Part shown: piece after piece, positions 19,132-59,141 of the stretch
Layout: the number at the start of each line of letters is the position of its first letter
Position numbering within the stretch: position 1 is the stretch's first letter
Source: a virus
Lineage: Duplodnaviria; Caudoviricetes
Direction: 5' to 3' (one strand)
DNA length: 64,000 bases
Virus record (IMG/VR): IMGVR_UViG_3300030376_006203
Coordinates: 84,057-148,056 of that record
Notes under the pieces: generated by a model
Databases searched by the model: none
What the model saw: the letters and a program-made list of their open reading frames with translations, nothing else
What the model was told of the DNA's origin: nothing
Made by a program: the position numbers and the translations under genes

Positions 19132-19452
19132 GTGTGGGAGCCGAAACTCCCACACCTGACTACTTCTGTTGCCCGGCTAGTCTTCTCCGCCAAGTGGCCG
19201 GTTATTAAGCGGCAACCAATTCCGCATCAGCAAATATGCTGACTGGAACTGTCACTTCTGGTTTAAATGCGTTTGCATTTGTAAATGATCCTTTACAGAG
19301 ATCAACTGGTAAACTCCATGTGCTTTTATGCTCCGGTCGAACCTATATCACCCCCTCGAAATAAACCAGACTATTTCAAATGAGCGAATTTGGTGGAGGT
19401 GGTCGGTACTGCCCCGACGTCCCAAAAGTGTATTACACACACTTCAACGCCT
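19132..19452 (-). ncRNA. ssrA: two-piece (circularly permuted) tmRNA; tag ANAFKPEVTVPVSIFADAELVAA
   Basis: Acceptor piece ends GTCGG-GGCAGTA-CCGAC-CACCTCC-A-CCA at 19391; 35-nt intervening segment; coding piece starts GGGGGTG at 19355 (G3-U70 pair); tag ORF 19276-19205 ends VAA-TAA-TAA; terminal hairpin 19132-19155. Outer ends are approximate. Confidence 0.92.
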
Positions 19453-19484
19453 ACAGTGTATTTAAACAGATTTTATATTAAATG

Positions 19485-19682
19485 TCAAGACTTGATTGGA
19501 GACCATCTACCATCAGCACTTCTAACTTTGTCAGAGTGTTTAACTTCAATGGTAAACGTCTTAACGTCTTTGAATTCCTTACCATGTGCGAAAGTAAACT
19601 CATGACCATTGTCAGTTTTACTTTTCCAATAGTGTTGGAAATCATCTATTACAATCTTATTTTTTTGTCTTTTAATTGCCAT
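19485..19682 (-). CDS. hypothetical protein
   Basis: 65-aa ORF between the csp gene and the tmRNA promoter. Confidence 0.6.
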   Translation of the reverse strand: MAIKRQKNKIVIDDFQHYWKSKTDNGHEFTFAHGKEFKDVKTFTIEVKHSDKVRSADGRWSPIKS

Positions 19683-36897: not shown

Positions 36898-37013
36898 AGT
36901 CTTGCCCTACTTTTTACTATTTACCGATTAGAAAGCAAATATAAAGCAGGTATTCATAGTATAGCAGGTCTAATTTTGGTTGTCAATCTTTTAATTGATG
37001 GTGTATTTGTGCC

Positions 37014-37021
37014 TATAAATA
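37014..37021 (+). promoter_or_regulatory. T4 late promoter TATAAATA
   Basis: Exact consensus 11 nt upstream of ATG 37033. Confidence 0.65.
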
Positions 37022-37032
37022 CATATATTATT

Positions 37033-37311
37033 ATGAACTTTTTACAATTTGTATCAGAAGTAGGATTTCCAATAGCAGGTGCTGTGGCATCTGGTGTGTT
37101 CATATTCATCATTTTAAAATTTATATTAGCCACTGTGACAGGGTCTGTGAATGGTCTTAAAAACATCATTAAAGCACTGGACAACAGAGTTCAGACCATG
37201 AACAATGATCTAATTAAGATTGATGCTTTGCTTTCACACGTGACTGGAGTCAAACCCAATGTTGATAGACTTGCCGCCAACGAAGGCAAGGAAGATGCGA
37301 GGAAAGACTAG
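37033..37311 (+). CDS. small membrane protein (YvrJ/holin-like), paralog 1
   Basis: EVGFPIA + TM + coiled coil RVQTMNNDLIKI. Confidence 0.7.
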   Translation: MNFLQFVSEVGFPIAGAVASGVFIFIILKFILATVTGSVNGLKNIIKALDNRVQTMNNDLIKIDALLSHVTGVKPNVDRLAANEGKEDARKD

Positions 37312-37578
37312 ATGATCACACTTGAATTTGCCAACGCAATCAAAGAATTTGGATTCCCTATTGTAGCCGCATTTGGTTTGGGTTACTTTGTTTACTATGT
37401 GTGGACTTGGGTAACCAAAGAAATAAAACCTGTATTGGGCGAAGCCAACACAACACTGATAGCACTCATAGATAGAATAAGAATGTTAGACAATGACATG
37501 ATACGTTTAACACAAAAGTTAAACATGGTGCTTGAACACAAAGAAAAGCAAGACAAGAAAAAATCTAAGAAGACTTAA
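37312..37578 (+). CDS. small membrane protein, paralog 2
   Basis: EFGFPIV + TM + RIRMLDNDMIRL. Confidence 0.7.
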   Translation: MITLEFANAIKEFGFPIVAAFGLGYFVYYVWTWVTKEIKPVLGEANTTLIALIDRIRMLDNDMIRLTQKLNMVLEHKEKQDKKKSKKT

Positions 37579-39496
37579 CAGTATATACTTTAATATTCTC
37601 AGTCTTACCTTTGACTGTGATGCTGTCTATATAATCAAACGGGTAAACAGTTTCAATGGTGTGTCTTGTGTCCTCACCTATCACTATGGTCTTGCCTAAT
37701 GTTTTGCTTGAACTTTCTAATCTACTTGCTAGGTTAACTGCGTCACCAATCACTGAGTAATCAAATCTCTGTTCCGATCCCATGTTACCAACCAATGCGT
37801 CACCTGTATTGATTCCTATCCCTATGTTTATTTGAGGAAGTCCTTCTGCTTGAAGACGTACATTTAATTCTGCTAGTGCCTTAGTCATCTCAAGAGCACT
37901 CTTAACTGCCATCTCTCTATGTTTTTTATTTTCAATAGGTGCGTTCCAGAATGCCATGATACAGTCACCCATGAACTTGTCTATGGTTCCACCATTTGAT
38001 ATTATCACATCTGTCATGCGTGTTAAGAATCTGTTAATCAATTTTGTTAGTCCTGCTGGATTGCCTTTGTACTTCTCACTGATAGGTGTGAAGCCTCTGA
38101 TGTCACAGAACAAGAATGTCATGTTCCTTGTTTCGCCACCCAGTTTCAACAGAGATGGATCCTTCTGTAATTTTTTAACCATGCCAGGATCAAGATAGTG
38201 TTCAAACTGTTTCTTAATTTGTTGTCGCAGTCTGCTCTGTGTGGCAAAATTATTGTACACAGAATGAGACCAAATCAAAAACACAGACAACATTATCCAA
38301 GATGGATCTACAAGAAATCCTCTGTTGGTGTATGCCATGAATGATCCGTAGGCAACACCTACTTCCACAAACAACAATAGAGGCACAGCCAACAACACAC
38401 TGGTTCTAGGTAATACCATTATCAACAATAATAGTAACAGTGCCATAAACACAATTTCATAAGTGTCTGCTTGAGGTGTACGCAACAAATATTTGTCTGT
38501 GAGTAAAGTATCTAATGCTTGGGCAGTTATGTTCTGATCTGTTGTAAGTCCGTGTGGTGTATATTTTAACACACTCAATCCCGCGGCATCTAAACCAACA
38601 ATCACAATTCTATTTTTTATTTTGTTTTCATTGTAATTGCCTGAAAGAATATCACTTGCTGTCATATTCACATACATTGTAGGATCAGCATAGTTGATAT
38701 ACATTTCTGCATGATGATTCACAGGTATGCCTGCTTTTTTACTCACAAGCACTTCATCTATGCCATGTTGTTTGGCTACAACTTTAATTCTTTTTGAATT
38801 GTTTAACAACCTAACATTTTCTAATATCATGCTGGGATAAATTTTTCCATTTATTCTAATCAACACAGGCATTTTTCTTACCACAGCATCTGGTTCTGGT
38901 GATGTTACATTTACTCCCATACCAGTGGCACCTGCTGAGACTTTTGCGTGTGGAGAAACAATGCCACCAAACTCATACAACCATGGTTTGACATTGCCCT
39001 TTTCGATAATCTTTGTGGTGCTGGGTAAATTTGTATCAGACTCATTTTTCACACTCATCATGAGTACTGCTTTATTTGATTCTTTCAACACTATAGAAAA
39101 CACAGCATCTGTATCCAATAAAATATTACTCAATTGATCCCGCACATCATTAGTCATGGGCATTGATTTTAAATATTCAACGCCACTCATTCTATCTGGT
39201 TCAGCAAATAATATATTGTAGTTCACAAGTATGGCACCAGCATCAGACAGTTTAGCATGAAGCATAGCCATTATGTGTCTGGGCCATGGCCATTGCCCAT
39301 ATGTTTTTAAATCTTGTTCTGTGATGTTTACCACAGTGACTGAATCACTTACAATCTGTCTTGGTTGTATTGTTTGAAATTTGTCCCATGTCTTGTATCT
39401 TAAAATTTTTATTGTGTCACTGTTGTCTATTCTTATTCCAGTCAACACTATGGCAAACACAATCACCATCCATATGCTTGTTAAAAATTTATTCAT
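37565..39496 (-). CDS. CHASE2-domain class III adenylate/guanylate cyclase
   Basis: GQWPWPR and DAVVRK CHASE2 motifs, three TMs, FCDIRGFT, DKFMGDCIMAFW, DYSVIGDAVNLASRLES, VKGK; the K/D specificity residues suggest ATP. Confidence 0.93.
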   Translation of the reverse strand: MNKFLTSIWMVIVFAIVLTGIRIDNSDTIKILRYKTWDKFQTIQPRQIVSDSVTVVNITEQDLKTYGQWPWPRHIMAMLHAKLSDAGAILVNYNILFAEPDRMSGVEYLKSMPMTNDVRDQLSNILLDTDAVFSIVLKESNKAVLMMSVKNESDTNLPSTTKIIEKGNVKPWLYEFGGIVSPHAKVSAGATGMGVNVTSPEPDAVVRKMPVLIRINGKIYPSMILENVRLLNNSKRIKVVAKQHGIDEVLVSKKAGIPVNHHAEMYINYADPTMYVNMTASDILSGNYNENKIKNRIVIVGLDAAGLSVLKYTPHGLTTDQNITAQALDTLLTDKYLLRTPQADTYEIVFMALLLLLLIMVLPRTSVLLAVPLLLFVEVGVAYGSFMAYTNRGFLVDPSWIMLSVFLIWSHSVYNNFATQSRLRQQIKKQFEHYLDPGMVKKLQKDPSLLKLGGETRNMTFLFCDIRGFTPISEKYKGNPAGLTKLINRFLTRMTDVIISNGGTIDKFMGDCIMAFWNAPIENKKHREMAVKSALEMTKALAELNVRLQAEGLPQINIGIGINTGDALVGNMGSEQRFDYSVIGDAVNLASRLESSSKTLGKTIVIGEDTRHTIETVYPFDYIDSITVKGKTENIKVYTVKSS

Positions 39497-39858
39497 CCTA
39501 ATTCTTTCAGTCCTTCAAGTATGCCAATTGATACGCCAAAGAACAGTGAAAGTCCTAACATTATCACAGGACTTAATAACCACAAGTACCAGTAGTAACG
39601 AAATATATTCTGTCCTCTTGCCAATCTTATTTTACGTTGATCCAAAAACCAATGCACTATTCTTTTTATAAAGCCTTTGATATGTTTGTTTACAAATTTA
39701 TTCAACAACCAACGTATCACTCTCATCACAATCAGTATGGGAGAACTCAGCACATCAAACACAATCAGGAACACATCAACACTGAAGTCTACAATGTTGT
39801 CTGCTGTGCAGGCTTTCTTCCATCTCTCTTTAAGTGTAAGTTTCTTTTGTTCTTCCAT
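39493..39858 (-). CDS. membrane protein
   Basis: Two hydrophobic segments; overlaps the cyclase start. Confidence 0.65.
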   Translation of the reverse strand: MEEQKKLTLKERWKKACTADNIVDFSVDVFLIVFDVLSSPILIVMRVIRWLLNKFVNKHIKGFIKRIVHWFLDQRKIRLARGQNIFRYYWYLWLLSPVIMLGLSLFFGVSIGILEGLKELG

Positions 39859-39859
39859 T

Positions 39860-40585
39860 TTATCTTTCTTGTAGTGCTTGACCAATGCTGTTATGGAATG
39901 GTGTTGTAATATAACTTAAAATTGTTCGCTCTCCAGTCAAAACAAAAACGTGTACCTGTACACCCGGCACCAACTTATACTGCATTTCTCCATTGGCAAA
40001 AGCCTGAGAATCTAATTCTAATTCTATTTCATAGTAAGACATTGTTTGTTTTTGTACAGCATCAGGCGATATAGATATTATCTTTGCTCCTATAGGAAGA
40101 TATGTAAATGCTTCAGAACTTGCCAATTTTATTTTTGCTGATTGTCCTACTTCAACATAACCTCTGTCTTTAACTTGTAATTGTCCTTGAACAATTAATT
40201 TTTGATCTAGTGGTACCAACACTGCCAAAGCATCACCTTGTTTAACAACTGATCCTGGATTTTTAAACGTAAGTTCTTGTATCTTTCCATCTATGTTTGC
40301 TTTGATATGATAAGGTTCATAGCCTACACCTGGATTGATTGTGATTATGATGTCGCCTTTGTTGACCACATCTCCTTGTTTGTGATTTACTTTTACAATC
40401 TCTCCTGTAACCATGGTGCCAAGTGTTGTAATATTTTTCTCAGGTACAACCAGTCCATTGGCAACAGTGGTTATGTCAACTTTAGAAAATGACATCCACA
40501 CAAAGAACACAACAAATAGACTTGTCAACAAGACAAAGAATTTATTGTTTGATGAAACTGATGATTTCTGTTGTTGCTCTATCAC
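39860..40585 (-). CDS. HlyD-family membrane fusion protein (short)
   Basis: TM, ANGLVVP, GDVVNKGD, IKANIDGKI, GSVVKQGD, ISPDA, LVPG, TGERTILSY. Confidence 0.85.
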   Translation of the reverse strand: MIEQQQKSSVSSNNKFFVLLTSLFVVFFVWMSFSKVDITTVANGLVVPEKNITTLGTMVTGEIVKVNHKQGDVVNKGDIIITINPGVGYEPYHIKANIDGKIQELTFKNPGSVVKQGDALAVLVPLDQKLIVQGQLQVKDRGYVEVGQSAKIKLASSEAFTYLPIGAKIISISPDAVQKQTMSYYEIELELDSQAFANGEMQYKLVPGVQVHVFVLTGERTILSYITTPFHNSIGQALQER

Positions 40586-41294
40586 GTTGTTTTATTGCCT
40601 CCTTTGCTTTGGCATATTTGTTAGCACCTTGCAGTGCTCTTGCCGCCAATATGTTTGAACCTATTAGTAGTCCCACATCCAATGAGCCTGCGATAATTTG
40701 TGTCGCACCTACTGACATAATAACCACTGTCATAAGTCCTGTTAAAAATATTTCTAAATTTGTTGTGCTGTGAATCTGCAGGCTTAGGTTCATTCGTTGT
40801 GCTGTCAACACTATCATTATAATCATGAATATAGCCGCAATTATTGCCGCTGTCCAATTTATGTACAGCAACACAATAAGAAATGCCAACACGAATGGCC
40901 AATCTAGAATCCAACCGGTTGTGGCTGATGTCCTCATATTTTTTATTGTTGTGCCTGCACCATCCAACTTTTTATATTGCTCGGCTGTGAGTTGTCCTGC
41001 TTTGCTGAATTTTTCTCCAAATGCTTTCAACAGAGGATCGTAAACACGTTGGTTGTGTGCTGTCATCATTGCGCCTCTATTCTGTCTGAATCCAAATTCA
41101 AACGCCAGCAACATAATGGCTCCCATAGCCAAAGATATTAATGTTGATGTAACTCCTGATGCTAGATATTTGTTTAACACAATTATCACAAACAACGCAG
41201 GTGCCAAGGCACAGATGTTGATGATCAAACTGCTTGTTAATAGCATTATAGCATTCGATTTATCGCGGAATAACTGTCGTAAAAAACTTGTCAT
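40542..41294 (-). CDS. type I secretion ABC transmembrane domain, no nucleotide-binding domain
   Basis: SLIINICALAPALF, ILDWPFVLAFL, GSLDVGLLIGSNILAARAL; no Walker A/B or LSGGQ. Confidence 0.8.
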   Translation of the reverse strand: MTSFLRQLFRDKSNAIMLLTSSLIINICALAPALFVIIVLNKYLASGVTSTLISLAMGAIMLLAFEFGFRQNRGAMMTAHNQRVYDPLLKAFGEKFSKAGQLTAEQYKKLDGAGTTIKNMRTSATTGWILDWPFVLAFLIVLLYINWTAAIIAAIFMIIMIVLTAQRMNLSLQIHSTTNLEIFLTGLMTVVIMSVGATQIIAGSLDVGLLIGSNILAARALQGANKYAKAKEAIKQRDRATTEIISFIKQ

Positions 41295-41322: not shown

Positions 41323-43059
41323 TTAAAGAAGTGGGTCCACAAGACCTAACACCTTGTGCAGTTGATATCTAGCAATCTGCCAATCTATCAATGCGTTGGC
41401 ATAGGCAACTTCACTCATTATGTGTGCTGTCTTCATGCCAAACACAGCCATGATAGGTGAATTTCCTGCTTGAAAATCTGCCAGTGTCAATTTGTACATT
41501 TCATCGTTGATTTCAACTGTTCTTTTCAAAGTAGCCAGATTCTTTTCAACCAACACATAATTGTTCCAAGCATTATCAAACTGTTCTTGTGTGGTTCTTA
41601 ACACATCCGTATATCTAAAGTTTGCGGCATTCAAACGAGAACGGTCTGCGTTTGTCAAGTGTCTGTTTTTAAAATTAAACAGTTTCCATGTCATTGTGAT
41701 GTCTGCTCTCCACTCTTCTTTTTGTGAATTATGTGTGTCATAACCACCACCTAGTTCACCGTCCTTCTCTGTGTATGAAAGTTTGCCGTCAACTCTAGGT
41801 TTGAATTCCGCACGGTCAAAATTTAATTGTTCTTGAGCAATCGTGATATCCATGCTGGCAATACGCAGTGTGGTATTATTGGACACTGGAGTTCCTTGTA
41901 CAGGAATCATGCCCAATGCATCCACTAAAGGTTTTGGCATACCTGCGATGTTGTGTGGCTTGAATCTCCAAACGTTTTGGAATCTCTGTATCGCACTATC
42001 AAGACCTAGTCTGCTTGTCATTGAAAGTGTTTGATATGTTCTGTATTGTTGTTCTATTTGCAGTTGTTCCAATTTAGAACCTTCACCTTTTTTAACTTTT
42101 TCTATTGTCATAGCAAGTGTAACTTTAGCATTGGCTTCTACTTTTTTATTGGCTTCGTGTGTGTTGTATGCTTTCATCAAGTTTAACCAAGCATTGATTG
42201 CCTCAATGATCACATCTTCTTTTACCAGTTCTAATCTGTAGTGTGCCTGTTGAGCAGTTGCTTTGGCTTTGTCTATCATGGCATTGGTTCTGCCTGCGTC
42301 CCAAATCATTTGTGTGATTGTGATTGACTTTTGAATACCTTGTTTAGAATCATGTGTGATTGTGTTGTTGGGATATGTACCTTTAGCAGGAGTTCTGTCG
42401 TCTTCCCAGTTGTTGCCAATTGATATAGAAACTTGCGGATAGTATGCTGTGTATTCTGATTTGAGTGCCTCAACAGCCGCTTCGTAATCAAGTTCTGCCG
42501 CTTTGATCTTTTCGTTCTCAACAATCAGTCTTGGTAACAATTCATGAAACTGCATCCATGTAATTTTTTGATCAGCATCAACATCAGCCCATTCTTTTTC
42601 AGTAGCCTGTTCTACCAATTTCTCATCTGCTTTGGCATCTATTTCTTTTTTAGCAATTTCTTTTTTTACTTCAGGCTTCTGTGTTTCTTCAACAGATGTT
42701 TCTGCCAGTTTCTTTTTCTCAATGTGTTCTTTAACTTTGTCTTCTGTTGCTATTACTTCTTTTTCAATTTTTTCTAACTTTTCTACCTTCTCTGTGGCTT
42801 TGGGAGCCTCTTCAACTTTGTCTTTGAATTTCTTTATGGGATTTTCTTTTTTCTTTTTGGGTGCTTCAACTATCTCTATGGTTAATCCTTCCACAGGTTT
42901 GGATCTAATCCTTGCTTGATTATCACCACACTTCTCTTGGATATAAGTTTCTGTTTCCTCAACCACTTCCCATTCACAACCTCCACTGTCTTCCGCAAAG
43001 ACGGCTATGTTCCAATTGAACATAATTGCTATCAAAATGTAGTGTACGAGTTTGTTCAT
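41323..43059 (-). CDS. TolC-family outer membrane channel with a charged N-terminal extension
   Basis: Signal peptide; AYYPQVSI, ITQMIWDAG, FKPRVD, MTWKLF, ARYQLHKVLG outer-membrane efflux repeats. Confidence 0.85.
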   Translation of the reverse strand: MNKLVHYILIAIMFNWNIAVFAEDSGGCEWEVVEETETYIQEKCGDNQARIRSKPVEGLTIEIVEAPKKKKENPIKKFKDKVEEAPKATEKVEKLEKIEKEVIATEDKVKEHIEKKKLAETSVEETQKPEVKKEIAKKEIDAKADEKLVEQATEKEWADVDADQKITWMQFHELLPRLIVENEKIKAAELDYEAAVEALKSEYTAYYPQVSISIGNNWEDDRTPAKGTYPNNTITHDSKQGIQKSITITQMIWDAGRTNAMIDKAKATAQQAHYRLELVKEDVIIEAINAWLNLMKAYNTHEANKKVEANAKVTLAMTIEKVKKGEGSKLEQLQIEQQYRTYQTLSMTSRLGLDSAIQRFQNVWRFKPHNIAGMPKPLVDALGMIPVQGTPVSNNTTLRIASMDITIAQEQLNFDRAEFKPRVDGKLSYTEKDGELGGGYDTHNSQKEEWRADITMTWKLFNFKNRHLTNADRSRLNAANFRYTDVLRTTQEQFDNAWNNYVLVEKNLATLKRTVEINDEMYKLTLADFQAGNSPIMAVFGMKTAHIMSEVAYANALIDWQIARYQLHKVLGLVDPLL

Positions 43060-43078: not shown

Positions 43079-46000
43079 TTATCCAGAAACCACCACTTCT
43101 GAGATCAATGCTGACTCTGTCTCGATCAGTGCGTAGTTGATGTCATCAAATTGTGAGAAATTACTCAGGTCAAGATATGCGTTGTAGCCTGTGGTGTTTG
43201 CGACCGTGACTGTGTTGCCGATCTCCACTGACCAACTGCCACCGCTGTATGTGACCGGTGTCACTTTGAAAGAGTAGTCGCCTGTGGCATCAGAGTCCTG
43301 TGTCAGATAGTCCTCTGAGTCATCCAGGATCTTGATCTTGTCCAGATTGAAAGTGTCAGTGGTCTCCCAAAGGTCACCGTCTCCGTCCCTATCGTATCCT
43401 ATCACACCATAGTGGTCATCCGCCTGTGTGGGTGTTGGTCCGGCGTCCATGTCTGTGTTGAAGGCCCAATATACAGAGTCCGCCGAGTCATCCCACACAA
43501 GGTCAATGTGGTCCATACCACCACCGATGTACACGTTGTTGCCCAGGTGTATGGCCTCAACAGCGGTGATGTCGTTCTCTGCGGTGTGCGTTCCTGAGCC
43601 AACTGTGTCTCTGAATACTGGAATGAATTCCGAGTCAACCACTATGCCTGCACCGTCGGATTCTGTCATTGCGTCCTCGTTCTGTTCTTGAAGCCACGTG
43701 GCAATTTCCTTGTGGTGATTCGTACTTCCGATGTAACCCGAAGAACTGTGACCGTCGATGTCACCCCAGGCAAGGAATGTTCCTGTGTATTCTGCTTCTG
43801 TGTCCTCTCTGCTCCATTCCGCTATCGCACCCTCATTGCCGTCACCGTTTGAGGAAACTAGATCTCCCCTACCCATGTATTCCTTGTGATAGACTGATGT
43901 GGAACCTCCCACAGTTGCACTCAACACACTATTGGTGTCACTCCAGGCCCTGTATTCTGCCGCTATATTCTGACTACCATTACCCACACCACTTATCATT
44001 CCTGTGTTGGTGGATGACGTGGTGTCAATGATGTTGATGAAATCTTCCTGGTCCTGATTTCTTTTATCGTCCCAATAACTGTGTTCAGTGATGGACACCA
44101 GAGAACCTCCTGACATCAAGTATGCCTTCCAGGCGTCGGTTAAGGAAGTGTTAGTGTTGATACGAGTGTTCCAGTTGAAGTCCCAGATCTGTGAGAACTG
44201 TGAGGCATATTTGAGTGTATTGGACGCCCAGTTACCCGAAGCGTCTGTGTCATACGTTACAGAGAACAAATCATCCAGTTGGCCACCCGCCTGGTTGTTT
44301 CCACTAATACTTCTGTCACCATGCAACGCCAAAATCTTGCCTTCCGCCCATGCGTTGTTCAACACCATGTCCTGTGAGTACCTTGCTCCCCAGGCATCTA
44401 ATGAGGTGTTGCTTATGCTTTGGGTGTGTGTTGCGGAGATCACCTCGTTGACGTCCGTGACATTGACCACTTGGTTCGTAGTTGATGTGTTGCCAAATGC
44501 ATCTGTGGCTGTGATTGTTAAATTGTAACTGGTTGTGGTCTCATAGTCCAGTGCCGCCGCTGTGGTGATTGCACCTGTGCTGGAGTTTATTGTGAATGCG
44601 TTGCCTGTGTTACCTGCTGTGATTGAATATGTGATTGTTTCACTCTCTGCATCAGAGGCAGATATTGTTGACACTGATGTGCCTGTGCTGACATCCTCTG
44701 CCAATGACACAGCACTGGTGTTGGATATCACAGGTGAGTGATTGTTCTCCACAGTGATCTGCCATTCGTCAATGTCTGCGGCTCCGTATGGATCTTGCAC
44801 TTTCAATAATATGCTGTATGTGGTGTCCTCTGTGACAGAGAAAGCAGAGTCTAAATAAATTCTATTGCCAGATATTCTTAACTTTCCTGATGGATCAGCA
44901 AATATAGAATAAGTCAATTGATCACCATTGGCATCTGACCCATACACATTTCCTAAAGTCGATCCCACTGCTAGGTTTTCATTCACACTCACATCATTTG
45001 GCATATCCAACCAAGGTGCTACATTTACATCTTGTTCTTGGGCCAGTTCGTAAATGAATTGATCCATGATATCATCGGCTTCAATGGCATTGTAGTAGGC
45101 ATTTTCGTTGGCATCTACCACTTCAAACAAATCATCTTGTTCTGCCTCTAGAGCATAATAATCATCAGCATTCATTATGCCATCTCCAGCACCATCAAAA
45201 TATTCATCAATATTACCTGCATTGACCACCATCATGTCTTTGACTTGCTGATCAACCACTTCGTTTTCAGGATCCATTTCTTTGAAAAAATCTTCCATTT
45301 CTTGTGCGATAGGTTCTTCAGCCAACACTTTCTCTTTTTCTTCTTGTAGTAACTGTTCTACCACTTGGTCATCTACTTGATTTTCTTCATCAACGTCGAA
45401 CACATCATTGTCTTCATTGAAACCTGGACCGTCTTCTGGATTGACTATTTCTCCATTATCCAAATTAATCATTACATTGTCTTCTTCAATCATTTCTTCT
45501 AGTTCTTGAAATTCTTCGTTGTTTTCCAATTCCTGCATCTGCTCTTTAACATTCTCTTCAGCAAAAATATCTTCAGGTTCTTCCTCAATGATTTCTTGTG
45601 GTTTATCAATCTCTTCTTTGATTTCTTCCATCACATTTTCTTTGAATTCTTCTATAAATTCAATTGGTGCTTCTTCTATGAACTGTTGGAGTTCTTCTTC
45701 AGGTATAAAGTTTTCAAACTCCTGAACAAATTCTTCTTGGAACTTTTCAAAGTTTTGTACAATGGCTTCAAATCTTTCTTCAACTGCTAGAACTTTTTGT
45801 TCAACAATTAATTCTTGTTCAATAACTTGTTGAACTTCTTTTTCTACAATTTCAACTTTGGCTTCTATCTCTGCAAAATCTTCTTGTACTTCAGCAAATT
45901 CTTTCTCTATCTCTTGAACTTTCTTTTCAACATCGGCTTTCTTTTCAGCCACCACTTCAATCTCTTTTTCTATTTGTTGTACTTCTTCTTCGATCTCTTC

Positions 46001-46978
46001 GAATTCTTCTTCTAGTTGTTGTAGTTCTTGTTCAATTTTTTCTCTTTCTTCAACAGGTGCGTCATCCAATTGTTCTTCTAGTTCCTCAATTTCTTCTGCA
46101 ACTTCTTCTTTCTTTTCTTCGGCTTGTTCTTTTTCTTCTAAAACTTGTTCTTCGGCTTCTTCTAACTCTTCAGCCTCCTCTTCAAGTTCTTCAGCCTCCT
46201 CTTCCAATTCCTCAGATTTTTCTTCAAGTTCTTCAGCCTCTTCTTCTAGTTGTTCTTTTTCTTCTTCAAGTTCCTCTTTTTCTTCTTCTAATTCTTCCGC
46301 CTCTTTTTCTGCTTCTGCTTTTTCTTTAGCGGCTTCTTCAGTTTCTCTTTCAACTTCTGCTTTGGCTTCTGTTTTTTTAGTTGTTGCGATTGTAGTAGCA
46401 AACTTTTTAAGCACCACTTCTTTTGGCAATATGACTGGAACTGTAGGCACAGTGTATGGATCAGTGATCACTGTGGCTTGGTATGCCTCAGTCAATAGCA
46501 CTTCACCAGATTCGTTTTTAATCATTACTTGTCCAACTGAACCATCTTCGTTGGGTAACAATACTATCTCGTTTTCTTCTCCATCTGTGTTGGCTTTACC
46601 CGCTACCTGTGTGCCTCTTACACCAATAGTCAATACGGGTGTTGTCACCTTCATAGCGTCATTGCCTACCTTGGCAATCTGTCCTGAAACAAAAGAAAAG
46701 TTACCTTCTAACACATTGGCATTCATAGATCCCACAGTTGGATTCTCAGGATCATACACAAAGTCGTCAATCACCATTGTGCTGTTTGGGTCAACAGACA
46801 TTGTGGTCTCATCTGCAAAAGCAATACCCACAGCAGTTCCGCCTGCACTGATTACGTCATCAAGATAGATGAAATCACCTTCGTTCAATGTCAATGTCTG
46901 ATCACCACGCTGAATCGTAAACGATTGTTCCGCTGTGGTAATTTTTCCAATTGCTTGTGGATCTTTGAAAACTGCCAT
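43079..46978 (-). CDS. large FecR/retention-domain, acidic coiled-coil, cadherin-repeat protein (putative T1SS substrate/adhesin)
   Basis: N-terminal FADETTMSVDPNSTMVIDDFVYDP...TPVLTIGVRGT; Glu-rich heptads; two cadherin repeats (SVNEN..., SLAED...LDYETTTSYNLTITATD...VTDVNE); no signal peptide. Confidence 0.85.
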   Translation of the reverse strand: MAVFKDPQAIGKITTAEQSFTIQRGDQTLTLNEGDFIYLDDVISAGGTAVGIAFADETTMSVDPNSTMVIDDFVYDPENPTVGSMNANVLEGNFSFVSGQIAKVGNDAMKVTTPVLTIGVRGTQVAGKANTDGEENEIVLLPNEDGSVGQVMIKNESGEVLLTEAYQATVITDPYTVPTVPVILPKEVVLKKFATTIATTKKTEAKAEVERETEEAAKEKAEAEKEAEELEEEKEELEEEKEQLEEEAEELEEKSEELEEEAEELEEEAEELEEAEEQVLEEKEQAEEKKEEVAEEIEELEEQLDDAPVEEREKIEQELQQLEEEFEEIEEEVQQIEKEIEVVAEKKADVEKKVQEIEKEFAEVQEDFAEIEAKVEIVEKEVQQVIEQELIVEQKVLAVEERFEAIVQNFEKFQEEFVQEFENFIPEEELQQFIEEAPIEFIEEFKENVMEEIKEEIDKPQEIIEEEPEDIFAEENVKEQMQELENNEEFQELEEMIEEDNVMINLDNGEIVNPEDGPGFNEDNDVFDVDEENQVDDQVVEQLLQEEKEKVLAEEPIAQEMEDFFKEMDPENEVVDQQVKDMMVVNAGNIDEYFDGAGDGIMNADDYYALEAEQDDLFEVVDANENAYYNAIEADDIMDQFIYELAQEQDVNVAPWLDMPNDVSVNENLAVGSTLGNVYGSDANGDQLTYSIFADPSGKLRISGNRIYLDSAFSVTEDTTYSILLKVQDPYGAADIDEWQITVENNHSPVISNTSAVSLAEDVSTGTSVSTISASDAESETITYSITAGNTGNAFTINSSTGAITTAAALDYETTTSYNLTITATDAFGNTSTTNQVVNVTDVNEVISATHTQSISNTSLDAWGARYSQDMVLNNAWAEGKILALHGDRSISGNNQAGGQLDDLFSVTYDTDASGNWASNTLKYASQFSQIWDFNWNTRINTNTSLTDAWKAYLMSGGSLVSITEHSYWDDKRNQDQEDFINIIDTTSSTNTGMISGVGNGSQNIAAEYRAWSDTNSVLSATVGGSTSVYHKEYMGRGDLVSSNGDGNEGAIAEWSREDTEAEYTGTFLAWGDIDGHSSSGYIGSTNHHKEIATWLQEQNEDAMTESDGAGIVVDSEFIPVFRDTVGSGTHTAENDITAVEAIHLGNNVYIGGGMDHIDLVWDDSADSVYWAFNTDMDAGPTPTQADDHYGVIGYDRDGDGDLWETTDTFNLDKIKILDDSEDYLTQDSDATGDYSFKVTPVTYSGGSWSVEIGNTVTVANTTGYNAYLDLSNFSQFDDINYALIETESALISEVVVSG
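46150..46310 (-). repeat. imperfect 21-nt tandem repeats encoding EEEAEEL/EEEKEEL heptads
   Basis: For example tcttcagcctcctcttcaagt repeated; protein AEELEEEKEELEEEKEQLEEEAEELEEKSEELEEEAEELEEEAEEL. Confidence 0.7.
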
Positions 46979-55489: not shown

Positions 55490-57142
55490 ATGGCTATAAA
55501 CGGTAAAACGAAACAAGTAGAATTTGGTTCTCGTAGCAGAGCAAAATTAATACAAGGGGTAGATGTTCTAGCAAATGCTGTAAGAACAACCTTAGGACCA
55601 AAAGGTAGAAACGTAGTGCTTCAAAGAACTTGGGGAGCACCTGCTGTAACCAAAGATGGTGTCACAGTTGCTAAAGAAATTTTATTGAAAGACGACCTAG
55701 CGAACATGGGTGCCCAGATGGTCAAGGAAGTGGCAAGCAAAACCAACGATGAAGCAGGTGATGGTACGACCACTGCCACAGTTTTGGCACAGGCAATTGT
55801 CAAAGAAGGCGCCAAATATGTCACGGCCGGAATGAATCCAATGGATTTAAAAAGAGGAATGGACAAAGCCACAGATGCCGTTATAGAACAATTAACAAAT
55901 ATTTCTAAACAATGTAAGACTCAAAACGAAATACAACAAGTTGGAACTATTTCAGCAAACTCAGATGAAGCAATAGGTTCTATGATTGCTGAAGCAATGG
56001 ATAAGGTTGGCAAAGAAGGAGTCATCACTGTTGAAAAAGGTAAGACTTTAAAGAATGAATTAGAAGTTGTTGAAGGATTACAATTTGACAGAGGTTTTAT
56101 GAGTCCGTATTTTATAAACAATCCAGAAAAACAGATTGTTGAATTAGAAGATGTTTACATCATACTGACAGGAAAACATATTAGAACAATCCAAGAGATA
56201 GTGCCAATACTAGAAGAACTTGCCAAAAAGAATAAGCCATTTCTTTTAGTTTGTGAAGATGCTGAAGGAGAAGCATTGGCTACTCTAGTAATGAATAATG
56301 CCAAAGGCACAATTAGATGTGCTTCTGTTTGGGCTCCTGGTTACGGTAACAGTAGAAAAGCCATGCTACAAGATATGGCAATATTAACTGGCGGTGATGT
56401 TATATCAGAAGAAACAGGTTTAAGTTTAGAGAAAGCCAAATTAGAAAATCTTGGTCAAGCATCAAGAGTTATCATAGACAAAAGCACAACCACAATTATT
56501 GGTGGTAAAGGATTCAAATCTAAAATAGATGGCAGAATAGTTGAGATCAAAAAACAAATTGAATTGAGTGAAGGCGGTGATGACAAAAAGAAATTAGAAG
56601 AAAGATTAGCCAAGTTGACCGGTGGAGTTGCTGTCATAAGAGTTGGAGCCGCAACAGAAGTTGAAGTCAAAGAGAAAAAAGATAGAATAGACGATGCCTT
56701 GAATGCTACCAAAGCCGCTGTAGAAGATGGTATAGTGCCTGGTGGTGGAGTGGCATACCTTAGAGCCAAACAAAATATTGCTGACCTTAAAGGACACAAC
56801 GAAGATCAGACAGCAGGAGTGCAAATTGTGTTGAAAGCAATTGAATCTCCAGTGCGACAAATAGTAGCCAATGCTGGTGGATCACCAGATGTGGTAGTAA
56901 ATGAAATATTAAATGGCAAAAACAATTTTGGTTATGATGCTGGTAAAGGAGAATTTGGTGATATGATCAAATTAGGAATAATTGATCCTACCAAAGTTAC
57001 GAAGACTGCTCTATTGAATGCGTCAAGTATTGCTGGACTGTTGATTACAACAGAAGCATCAGTGTTTGATGAGCCAGAACCCCAAAAGAAAGACTGGGAT
57101 CCTGTAAGTGGTAACATGAAAGAGGGTGACTTTTACAGTTAG
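55490..57142 (+). CDS. groEL: chaperonin GroEL
   Basis: [53 protein letters not shown]. Confidence 0.97.
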
Positions 57143-57224: not shown

Positions 57225-59141
57225 ATGAGTAAAATAATAGGAATAGACTTGGGTACAACCAATTCGTGCGTTGCTTTGATGGAAGGTAAGGACGCAAAGG
57301 TTGTTGAAAATACAGAAGGAGCAAGAACCACTCCAAGTGTGGTTGCGTTTACAGACTCTGAAACATTGGTTGGAATGCCTGCTAAAAGACAAGCAGTGTC
57401 CAACACATCTAACACAATATTTGCGGCAAAACGTTTGATTGGTAGAACATTTGAAGGTGATGCTGTACAAAAAGATATTAAGACACTTCCTTACGAAGTT
57501 GTGAAAGCAGACAACGGTGATGCGTGGGTTAAAGCCAACGGCAAAAACTATGCTCCATCAGAAATTTCTGCTTCAGTATTACGTAAGATGAAAGAGACAG
57601 CAGAGAAATATTTGGGTCAAGAAGTTAAGAAGGCAGTTATCACAGTACCTGCTTACTTCAATGATAGCCAACGTAAGGCTACAAAGGACGCAGGGAAAAT
57701 TGCTGGACTTGAAGTTGAAAGAATTATAAATGAACCAACAGCGGCGGCATTGGCATACGGACTTGACAAGAAAAAGTCAGGCACGATTGCTGTGTATGAC
57801 CTAGGTGGTGGTACATTTGATATTTCCATATTAGAATTAGGCGATGGTGTATTTGAAGTTAAGTCCACAAACGGTGACACAACACTGGGTGGTGAAGACT
57901 TTGATGCTACAATCACTGATTATATCATTAGTGAATTTAAAAAGGATCAAGGAATTGATCTTGCTAATGACAAGTTGGCAGTACAACGTGTGAGAGAGGC
58001 GGCTGAAAAAGCCAAGATAGAACTTTCAAGCACAACTCAGACTGATATCAACTTGCCGTTTATCACAGCAGACAAGACAGGTCCAAAACACATCAACATG
58101 AAGATGACAAGAGCCAAACTAGAAGCATTGGTTGGTGACCTTGTGGCAAAAACACTTGCTCCATGTAAACAGGCATTGAAAGATGCTGACGTAAAAGCAG
58201 GTGATGTAACAGAAGTAGTGTTGGTTGGTGGTATGACTAGAATGCCAAAAGTGTTTGACACAGTCAAAGAATTCTTTGGTAAAGAACCACACAAAGGTGT
58301 TAACCCAGATGAGGTTGTGGCATTGGGTGCCGCAATACAAGGTGGTGTGCTACAAGGAGATGTCAAAGATGTCTTGTTGTTAGACGTTACACCATTATCA
58401 CTAGGTATTGAAACATTAGGCGGAGTAACAACCAAATTGATTGAGAAGAACACAACAATTCCTACAAAGAAAAGTCAGGTGTTCTCAACAGCAGAAGACA
58501 ATCAAGCGGCTGTTACCATCAGAGTAACACAGGGTGAACGGGAAATGGCGGCTGATAACAAGTTGCTGGGTAACTTTAACCTTGAAGGTGTTGCTCCTGC
58601 TCCAAGAGGTGTGCCTCAAATCGAAGTAACATTTGACATTGACGCTAACGGTATTGTGAGTGTGGGTGCTAAAGACAAAGGCACAGGCAAAGAACAGAAG
58701 ATCACAATCAAAGCAGATGGTGGACTTTCAGATGAAGACATTGAGAAAATGGTTAAAGAAGCAGAAGCCAACAAAGAATCGGACAAGAAGAAAAGAGAGT
58801 TGGTAGAAGCAAAAAATCAATCTGAAACATTAACACATCAAATTGATAAACAACTCAAAGAACATGGCGACAAGATATCTGAAGAGGAGAAGAAAGCAAT
58901 TGAAGATGCCAAAACAACTTTAATTGAAGCAACCAAATCAGATGATGTGAGCAAGATTCAAGAAGGAATCAAAACACTCACTGAAGCATCAATGAAGTTG
59001 GGTGAAGCAGTTTACAAACAGGCACAACAAGAACAAGCACAAGAACAAGCACAACCTGAACAAAAGGAAGGTGCTGATGAAAATGTTGTAGATGCTGACT
59101 TCAAAGAAGTAGATCCAAAAGAAGAAGAAGACAAGAAATAA
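57225..59141 (+). CDS. dnaK: chaperone DnaK (Hsp70)
   Basis: [46 protein letters not shown]. Confidence 0.98.

Follow-up and report, generated by a model that had tools for sequence, protein, structure and literature searches.

We analysed a 64,000-nucleotide stretch of phage DNA, hereafter the window, which is the last 64 kb of a 148,056-bp IMG/VR virus record (IMGVR_UViG_3300030376_006203, positions 84,057 to 148,056; record label G000). Six co-oriented minus-strand genes form the locus of interest (Table 1), and two adjoining members encode the inner-membrane components of a type I secretion system (T1SS) in reduced form: the transmembrane domain (TMD) of an ATP-binding cassette (ABC) exporter and a periplasmic adaptor of the HlyD family. 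What defines type I secretion is an ABC ATPase together with a hairpin-bearing adaptor that bridges to TolC. At this locus, the exporter protein has no nucleotide-binding domain (NBD) and the adaptor has no hairpin. An earlier note on this DNA, made from the sequence alone, had described the pair as streamlined rather than decayed and had proposed that it acts as a conduit or scaffold, borrows a host NBD or inhibits the host T1SS in a dominant-negative manner.

Table 1 Genes of the cassette, with their positions in the window
Feature	Position	Strand	Length (aa)	Start codon	Domain matches or features
Giant acidic protein	43079-46978	-	1299		PF04773 FecR, PF00028 Cadherin
TolC-like outer-membrane factor	41323-43059	-	578		PF02321 OEP, TIGR01844
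NBD-less, ICL2-less ABC exporter membrane domain (TMD), PrtD/HlyB type	40542-41294	-	250	ATG	
Hairpin-less HlyD-family periplasmic adaptor	39860-40585	-	241	GTG	
Two-TM small membrane protein	39493-39885	-	130		two hydrophobic segments
CHASE2 sensor - class III adenylate/guanylate cyclase	37565-39496	-	643		PF05226, PF00211

The TMD gene stops after the last transmembrane (TM) helix, and its open reading frame (ORF) overlaps that of the adaptor, as the earlier note had reported; the overlap measures 44 nt. Only the membrane part of full-length exporter profiles was matched: positions 140–304 of 696 in TIGR03375 (E 7e-21; 74.2 bits against a cut-off of 693.1) and positions 5–162 of 544 in TIGR01842 (40.5 bits against a cut-off of 510.15). 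The stop falls about 15 residues ahead of the point where the NBD linker starts in full-length relatives. A second deletion lies within the membrane domain itself. Between TM4 and TM5 the protein lacks about 56 amino acids, seen as a 56-column gap against five full-length relatives, and the missing segment is the coupling-helix region of intracellular loop 2 (ICL2). The AlphaFold2 (AF2) model of the TMD (pLDDT 89.4) has six helices, with a 3-residue turn between TM4 (residues 147–170) and TM5 (residues 174–201); the cytoplasmic extension with coupling helix 2 is missing from it and the TM2–TM3 hairpin (ICL1) is kept. The best Foldseek matches of this model in the PDB were the membrane domains of HlyB, PCAT1 and PrtD (TMq 0.72–0.80). 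A profile of the TMD family matched none of the PDB sequences at E ≤ 0.01, and the TMD matched no Pfam family at E ≤ 0.1, the SbmA/BacA families (PF05992/PF06472) included. The TMD is a PrtD/HlyB-type exporter membrane domain that has neither NBD nor ICL2.

The adaptor is shortened between its lipoyl halves. Its two lipoyl half-motifs, GDVVNKGD (residues 71–78) and IKANIDG (residues 94–100), have 15 residues between them, and in an alignment with Escherichia coli HlyD (8dck) adaptor residues 19–82 correspond to HlyD residues 65–128 and adaptor residues 91–239 to HlyD residues 329–478. HlyD residues 129–328 are left without a counterpart, so that a hairpin of about 200 amino acids is replaced by about 8 residues. 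The motif positions and this alignment together confirm the claim that the long coiled coil is missing. The connector that stands in its place, NPGVGYEP, is invariant. By sequence the adaptor matched HlyD_3, Biotin_lipoyl_2 and TIGR01843, the last over its N-terminal part plus profile positions 272–422 with a score of 166.3 bits, below the cut-off of 208.65. The AF2 model (pLDDT 81) comprises a TM helix, a lipoyl domain, a beta-barrel and a C-terminal helix, with no hairpin. The only solved adaptor without an alpha-hairpin is BesA, from the BesABC pump of Borrelia burgdorferi, which is of the resistance–nodulation–division (RND) type (PMC3807786). BesA likewise joins its lipoyl halves by a short loop. 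In Foldseek, the model of the phage adaptor matched its structures 4kku, 4kkt and 4kks best (E 1e-11 over about 190 columns, root-mean-square deviation 4.0), and the adaptor profile matched 4kks contiguously, straight through the lipoyl domain. The two differ in their partners. That of BesA is an RND pump whose large periplasmic domain can come close to the exit duct, whereas the phage adaptor, a HlyD-family protein by sequence, has as its partner an ABC membrane domain devoid of any periplasmic domain. The cassette contains no RND gene, and the adjacent partner of the adaptor is the TMD.

The absence of Walker motifs from the locus, which the earlier note had pointed out, was upheld by a six-frame scan and by a search with PF00005 (ABC_tran). 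Neither Walker A nor LSGGQ occurs at 37–47 kb, the only G-x4-GK[ST] of the window lies at 1917, and PF00005 had no match in the whole 148-kb record. A stand-alone NBD was also sought in related phages. None of 23 related viral records (about 1.2 Mb) yielded a transporter-type NBD, and these records include contigs of 172, 137, 118 and 103 kb that bear the adaptor gene or, at the contig end, the cyclase of the cassette. In detail, ABC_tran had no match over the cut-off in 13 related fragments, and five further records with the cyclase, among them G022 (172 kb), G021 (118 kb) and G020 (103 kb), were likewise searched without finding an NBD. The position of the cassette differs among the long contigs, which jointly cover about 100 kb on each side if synteny holds. 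A stand-alone ABC ATPase is encoded by the related phages G014, G015, G016 and G018. The two copies examined (G014 and G016) are SufC, scoring above the equivalog cut-off; as the gene adjoins sufE/sufD and also occurs in the cassette-less relative whose 328-kb genome is complete, we rejected it as the missing NBD. SufC apart, neither the 148-kb record nor the 23 related records yielded a candidate.

Both truncations are shared by relatives. The same ORFs, uninterrupted and with identical ends, were found in at least 20 independent viral or metagenome contigs, and the position of the TMD stop is identical in all relatives. The ratio of nonsynonymous to synonymous substitution rates (dN/dS; median of pairwise NG86 values) was 0.115 for the TMD (9 sequences) and 0.068 for the adaptor (13 sequences), with 0.071 and 0.079 for the neighbouring TolC and cyclase genes. 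Purifying selection was detected in every sub-region of the TMD and the adaptor. Within the TMD, the TM helices have amino-acid identities of 0.83–0.95, with TM6 the highest at 95%, against 0.68 for the ICL1 loop, which is the least conserved part of the protein and has an indel at its tip. In the adaptor, dN/dS is about 0.04 for the lipoyl halves and about 0.07–0.12 for the short connector between them, and these are among the most constrained parts. The empty NBD searches, the loss of ICL2 and the variable tip of ICL1 make an NBD partner unlikely.

The reduced forms are abundant and belong to a deep family. A search with the adaptor found 1588 database proteins at E ≤ 0.001, and the best 120 of these 1588 were all full-length (222–241 amino acids) and at least 87% identical; in ocean metagenomes the 241-amino-acid adaptor is a very common protein. 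When 1.84 billion cluster representatives were searched with a profile of the TMD family, about 10 further clusters of NBD-less proteins of 247–257 amino acids came up, past which the next matches were ordinary PrtD-type ABC proteins of 550–570 amino acids. Divergent NBD-less forms, 28–44% identical, carry both TMD deletions, and the order TolC–TMD–short HlyD–CHASE2 is retained down to 28% identity where there is genomic context. In a quick tree, 11 of 12 rows of NBD-less forms grouped together with an SH-aLRT support of 96, or 77 when the long-branched P0160 was included. One deep relative has a 292-amino-acid adaptor with a short remnant of the hairpin, which suggests that the reduction was stepwise. 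The closest cellular relatives lie in normal operons of an outer-membrane factor, an ABC protein and a membrane fusion protein (OMF–ABC–MFP), with adaptors of 434–494 amino acids. Among GenBank phages, megablast with the 10-kb locus gave no match, and the only tblastn matches of the TMD and of HlyD were full-length T1SS genes of bacterial type, in records that resemble bacterial DNA. Thus, the reductions are old, common to the whole family and under purifying selection. Given the shared truncations and ends, the low dN/dS and the deep family of the same architecture, the two genes are streamlined and not decayed, in agreement with the earlier note, and the best explanation is that they descend from a type I secretion pair of the PrtD/PrtE type and still work in reduced form.

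The other genes of the cassette provide the setting of this pair. The TolC-like protein has a signal peptide, a conserved N-terminal motif with two Cys residues and a K/E-rich extension of about 110 amino acids. PF02321 OEP matched it in two stretches (E 3.5e-51), so both OEP repeats are present, and its residues 182–572 matched TIGR01844 positions 16–398 of 414 (100.2 bits, below the 225.15 cut-off). The K/E-rich part differs in length by up to 31 residues among close relatives, and in one distant relative about 40 residues are left between the parts matched by tblastn. The earlier note had suggested that the extension might make up for the missing hairpin; with its length this variable, it is unlikely to be a fixed-length strut and is at most a tether. 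The 130-amino-acid protein matched no family in the domain and profile libraries and is present in some relatives only: its tblastn match is missing in several, and in one (L026) called ORFs of 41 and 76 amino acids sit at its position. The cyclase combines a CHASE2 domain (PF05226, E 2e-39) with a class III catalytic domain (PF00211, E 1e-22) and always comes after the short HlyD, even in relatives that are 28–38% identical. PADLOC gave no match for the TMD, the adaptor or TolC; the cyclase domain alone was matched (PycC-like), which we set aside as generic similarity among class III cyclases. A general Pfam scan of the six cassette proteins showed no LapG/LapD-type match, no search aimed at LapG/LapD having been made. 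The complete 328-kb relative G014 has neither adaptor nor cyclase, the cassette being absent as a unit. Since the two are lacking together, the TMD and adaptor are part of a single accessory cassette, found in a lineage of marine jumbo phages.

The giant protein at the head of the cassette resembles a secreted protein and has no signal peptide. Its FecR domain (PF04773; 34.8 bits, cut-off 24) begins at residue 9, and a cadherin domain (PF00028) was matched at E 2e-22. Between the FecR and cadherin domains, residues ~200–700 form a stretch of about 500 residues that is nearly all E with some K, has a net charge of about −150 and varies between strains in length and sequence; the net charge of the whole protein is −237. 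The N-terminal FecR region of about 200 amino acids is highly conserved, the middle is variable, and the C-terminus, which ends in ...SEVVVSG, is again conserved. Many relatives of the giant protein bear RTX repeats (PF00353) and PF08548 (Peptidase_M10_C, the serralysin-type C-terminal domain). There are two C-terminal classes among the giant proteins, both ending in an acidic residue followed by hydrophobic residues, an arrangement that resembles the PrtD-type secretion signal. On the strength of the conserved termini, the variable middle, the RTX and Peptidase_M10_C domains of relatives, the acidic–hydrophobic end and the strong negative charge, the giant protein is a candidate T1SS substrate or anchored surface protein.

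A second type of phage cassette shares the FecR domain and the cyclase. Homologues of the cyclase, 32–35% identical over 99% of the length, occur in Pelagibacter phage HTVC008M (KC465899.1, 7562–13807) and Methylophilales phage Melnitz (MZ577097.1, 50731–56876). There the co-oriented order is CsgF, CsgG, a curlin repeat protein, a FecR protein, a curlin/PA14 protein and, last, the CHASE2 cyclase (sources for this curli-type cassette: PMC7029224, PMC9004378). The N-terminus of the giant protein is 36% identical to the HTVC008M FecR protein (E 4e-31). In HTVC008M and Melnitz the FecR protein bears a Sec signal peptide and reaches the periplasm by that route, and its homology to the giant protein begins at the mature N-terminus. 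The two cassettes are alike in their homologous FecR domain and CHASE2 cyclase and in having an outer-membrane channel and extracellular repeat proteins. They differ in that the channel set in the window is derived from a T1SS and not from CsgG/CsgF, a type VIII system confined to the outer membrane, and in that FecR is no separate protein here but the fused N-terminal domain of a giant protein that has no signal peptide. PF03783 (CsgG) had no match in the 148-kb record. The FecR domain and the CHASE2 cyclase are thus a constant core, joined either to the ATP-independent CsgG/CsgF channel or to the T1SS-derived set. The pelagimyophage curli operon has been described as being of unknown function, and the cyclase was not mentioned (PMC7029224). 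In Sinorhizobium meliloti, an alphaproteobacterium with the CHASE2 cyclases CyaD1/D2/K, the cAMP regulator targets the FecR-domain protein SMc02177, for which a part in signal perception was not supported (PMC5498481). That pathway resembles the phage cassette in pairing CHASE2 cyclases with an extracytoplasmic FecR protein, and differs from it in being cellular and in having no T1SS parts.

The source of the window is an uncultured marine jumbo phage with a genome of about 330–360 kb. The completeness of the record is 41% by CheckV, the complete relative G014 measures 328 kb with terminal repeats, and the window, with a G+C content of about 36%, encodes ribonucleotide reductase, GroEL and tail-like genes as well as seven RNA genes called by ARAGORN. 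GroEL (phrog_5725; 55490–57142, plus strand) is followed by a 638-amino-acid protein of unassigned function (phrog_22485; 57225–59141, plus strand) that about 75 of the 78 viral contigs found share at 65–92% identity; it is a handy marker of the phage lineage. Two small membrane proteins encoded by tandem paralogues (36976–37311 and 37312–37578, plus strand; both phrog_18771) flank the cyclase in all relatives, in a direction relative to the cassette that varies among contigs. TAAATA is present no more than 45 nt upstream of 21 of 80 called genes, those of the giant protein, TolC and the TMD included, against 1.4% of random 45-nt windows (intergenic AT-richness uncorrected), and may be the core of a phage promoter. 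The T4 late-promoter octamer TATAAATA was not enriched (2 matches against 4.9 expected). In the related jumbo phage G016, SufE-like and SufC genes adjoin a gene for a TonB-dependent receptor-like protein (L118:2168-3460) that matched BtuB/TonB-B12 models at E 1e-26 to 1e-28, though with scores under the cut-off; in G014, SufC is accompanied by a SufD-like gene.

Two observations touch on the host. The window contains a permuted transfer-messenger RNA (tmRNA; 19155–19506, minus strand) of alphaproteobacterial type (Rfam alpha_tmRNA 92 bits, tmRNA_permuted 87 bits), for which ARAGORN gives the tag ADAELVAA; the tmRNA type is a hint that the host may be an alphaproteobacterium. In addition, a profile search of genome contigs with a narrow alignment found only two phage-like contigs, both binned in one metagenome-assembled genome (MAG). 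This is 'Rickettsiales bacterium MED657', a GTDB species representative of 2.0 Mb, whose sampled chromosomal loci have a G+C content of about 0.27–0.34. The two contigs (NZHE01000025.1 and NZHE01000018.1) have a G+C content of 0.38 and bear the cassette together with flanking phage genes; they either come from a phage and were binned together with its possible host, or are contaminants of the MAG. The native NBD-less form was seen in no cellular genome with search patterns that reach close relatives only.

How, then, might the cassette work? The nearest known systems, PrtD/PrtE/PrtF (AprDEF) and HlyB/HlyD/TolC (TIGR01842, TIGR01846, TIGR01843 and TIGR01844; 5l22, 7sgr and 8dck), share with it the OMF–ABC–MFP order seen in the nearest cellular relatives, the fold of the membrane domain, the lipoyl and barrel domains of the adaptor and the full-length TolC repeats. 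PrtDEF-type systems also resemble it in having an acidic substrate with a conserved C-terminus, to which the giant protein and the RTX repeats of many of its phage relatives correspond. The phage set differs from them in lacking the NBD, ICL2 and the adaptor hairpin, in the extra N-terminal extension of TolC, in being encoded by a phage and in always being followed by a CHASE2 cyclase. Our preferred reading, to which we assign a probability of about one half, is that the TMD and adaptor serve as an ATPase-free base for export or anchoring of the giant protein and are coupled to the cyclase; the mechanism is one that we infer. We read the pair as such a base because these are the only inner-membrane parts that the cassette provides for passage of the giant protein. 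With no signal peptide and fused to a chain that resembles a T1SS substrate, the FecR domain would reach the periplasm only by a type I route.

In this mechanism the TMD, probably as a dimer, and the short adaptor would form an ATPase-free inner-membrane base that passes or holds the signal-peptide-less giant protein, C-terminus first, and the passenger would leave the cell through the phage TolC. The N-terminal FecR domain would stay behind on the periplasmic side, as in retained adhesins, and serve close to the CHASE2 domain as a plug or ligand. Something other than ATP hydrolysis by the TMD would have to drive the process, candidates being the pull of the membrane potential on the very acidic chain and extracellular folding that depends on Ca2+. 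The output would be cAMP signalling tied to a surface fibre, in parallel to an ATP-independent CsgG version of the cassette. A fuller version of the same idea is tentative and less probable than not: an ATP-independent, type I-like export and retention machine driven by the potential and by Ca2+ folding, in which the retained FecR domain would gate the CHASE2 cyclase. The whole would then be a sensor spanning the envelope, responsive for instance to cell contact or surface load, and would reprogram the infected cell through cAMP; its channel could be swapped for CsgG/CsgF in related phages.

Parts of this mechanism have precedents. SbmA/BacA is a membrane protein related to ABC exporters that has no NBD and is driven by the proton-motive force; it acts in import and outside any tripartite system. 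It is a precedent for an ABC-type exporter membrane domain that works without an ATPase, although no sequence relation to the TMD was detected. The adhesin T1SSs of LapA (LapBCE) and MpIBP combine an N-terminal retention module with a complete ABC ATPase and a normal adaptor. These systems are similar in their giant repeat adhesin, in an N-terminal domain that may plug TolC from the periplasm and in a link to a second messenger. The retention-module hidden Markov model NF033682 matched the giant protein weakly (residues 20–73; 15.5 bits against a cut-off of 50, E 0.015), in a domain that scores as FecR instead.

Several points weigh against an ATPase-free base. Type I secretion is not known to proceed without ATP hydrolysis, be it in HlyB or in PrtD systems. 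The sites at which a C-terminal signal usually docks, namely the NBD and the long cytoplasmic tail of HlyD, are missing. The lack of a hairpin leaves the adaptor without an evident means of reaching the tip of TolC. The giant protein of the window itself had no RTX match in domain scans, and in the 41% complete source genome an NBD gene could lie elsewhere. Export, complex formation and coupling to the cyclase are suggested by gene linkage and homology. Prediction of a complex between FecR (residues 1–200) and the periplasmic domain of CHASE2 (residues 24–340) gave a score of 0.00 without controls, a result that we count neither for nor against the reading.

Of the three options in the earlier note, the conduit or scaffold is thus the one that we favour. 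Borrowing of a host NBD is disfavoured by the deletion of ICL2 and by the tip of ICL1, which is the least conserved part and has an indel. Another reading is a hybrid machine, in which the ABC protein of a host T1SS performs the ATP step and the phage TMD and adaptor act as a specificity or retention module, for instance in mixed assemblies or as a receiver for an N-terminal plug. The giant protein has a PrtD-type C-terminal end, which in known systems is read by an NBD-bearing ABC protein; the MED657 MAG, with its two cassette-bearing phage-like contigs, has T1SS-type ABC genes of its own; and the solved HlyB/D complex (7sgr, 8dck) contains several ABC dimers per assembly. The phage TMD, however, is only about 30–35% identical, in segments, to the MED657 ABC proteins, the loss of ICL2 removes the domain-swapped contact of ABC dimers, and the phage supplies its own TolC. 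We regard the hybrid machine as rather unlikely, though as a serious rival.

An ordinary, ATP-driven T1SS that is unusually split, with its cognate NBD, stand-alone or fused, encoded in the unsequenced part of the genome, appears improbable to us. The incompleteness of the source record would allow it, and related phages do encode one stand-alone ABC ATPase; yet that ATPase is SufC, shared with the cassette-less complete relative, and the long adaptor- or cyclase-bearing records, which extend about 100 kb to either side, hold no ABC_tran match over the cut-off except SufC in G016. An NBD would, moreover, meet a TMD whose ICL2 coupling helix is deleted and whose ICL1 tip is variable.

Equally little credence can be given to an interference device, in which the stripped proteins would poison or occupy the host T1SS or TolC as dominant negatives or for superinfection exclusion. 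Truncated subunits of oligomeric machines are often dominant negative, and some phages use TolC as a receptor. A dominant-negative inhibitor nevertheless fits poorly with the other members of the cassette, for the phage TolC, the substrate-like protein and the cyclase come and go together with the pair and are equally constrained. The similarity to candidate host T1SS proteins is low, and the lack of PADLOC matches for the TMD, the adaptor and TolC also speaks against this function.

More doubtful still is an envelope pore, that is, an ungated conduit of TMD, adaptor and TolC for uptake or release of small molecules or for the timing of lysis, with no more than a loose connection to the giant protein and the cyclase. 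Loss of the NBD that drives the gate could leave a passive channel, and a similar idea of an uptake pore has been raised for phage CsgG (PMC7029224). Against it stand the tight and deep linkage with the FecR giant protein and the cyclase, and the collapse of membrane potential that an open pore in the inner membrane would cause. Finally, that the TMD and HlyD are decaying remnants of a captured T1SS operon, as might be suspected from scores under the curated NCBIfam cut-offs for both proteins, is refuted by dN/dS values of 0.07–0.12, by identical ends without stops or frameshifts in at least 20 contigs, by an architecture kept to 28% identity and by high abundance in ocean metagenomes.

We found no description in the literature of a phage T1SS set, an NBD-less T1SS ABC protein or a phage CHASE2 cassette of this kind. 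In a widespread lineage of ocean phages, the two defining features of the T1SS have been cleanly removed, and the resulting form is kept under strong selection. As a natural minimal T1SS scaffold, it could reveal where the passage of a substrate and the docking to TolC really depend on ATP and on the hairpin. The cassette ties a phage surface fibre and an outer-membrane channel to a CHASE2 cyclase, a sensor domain without known ligands. Because the same FecR–cyclase pair stands beside the unexplained curli genes of pelagimyophages, one explanation could cover both cassettes and reveal how the envelope of streamlined marine bacteria is remodelled and sensed by their phages.

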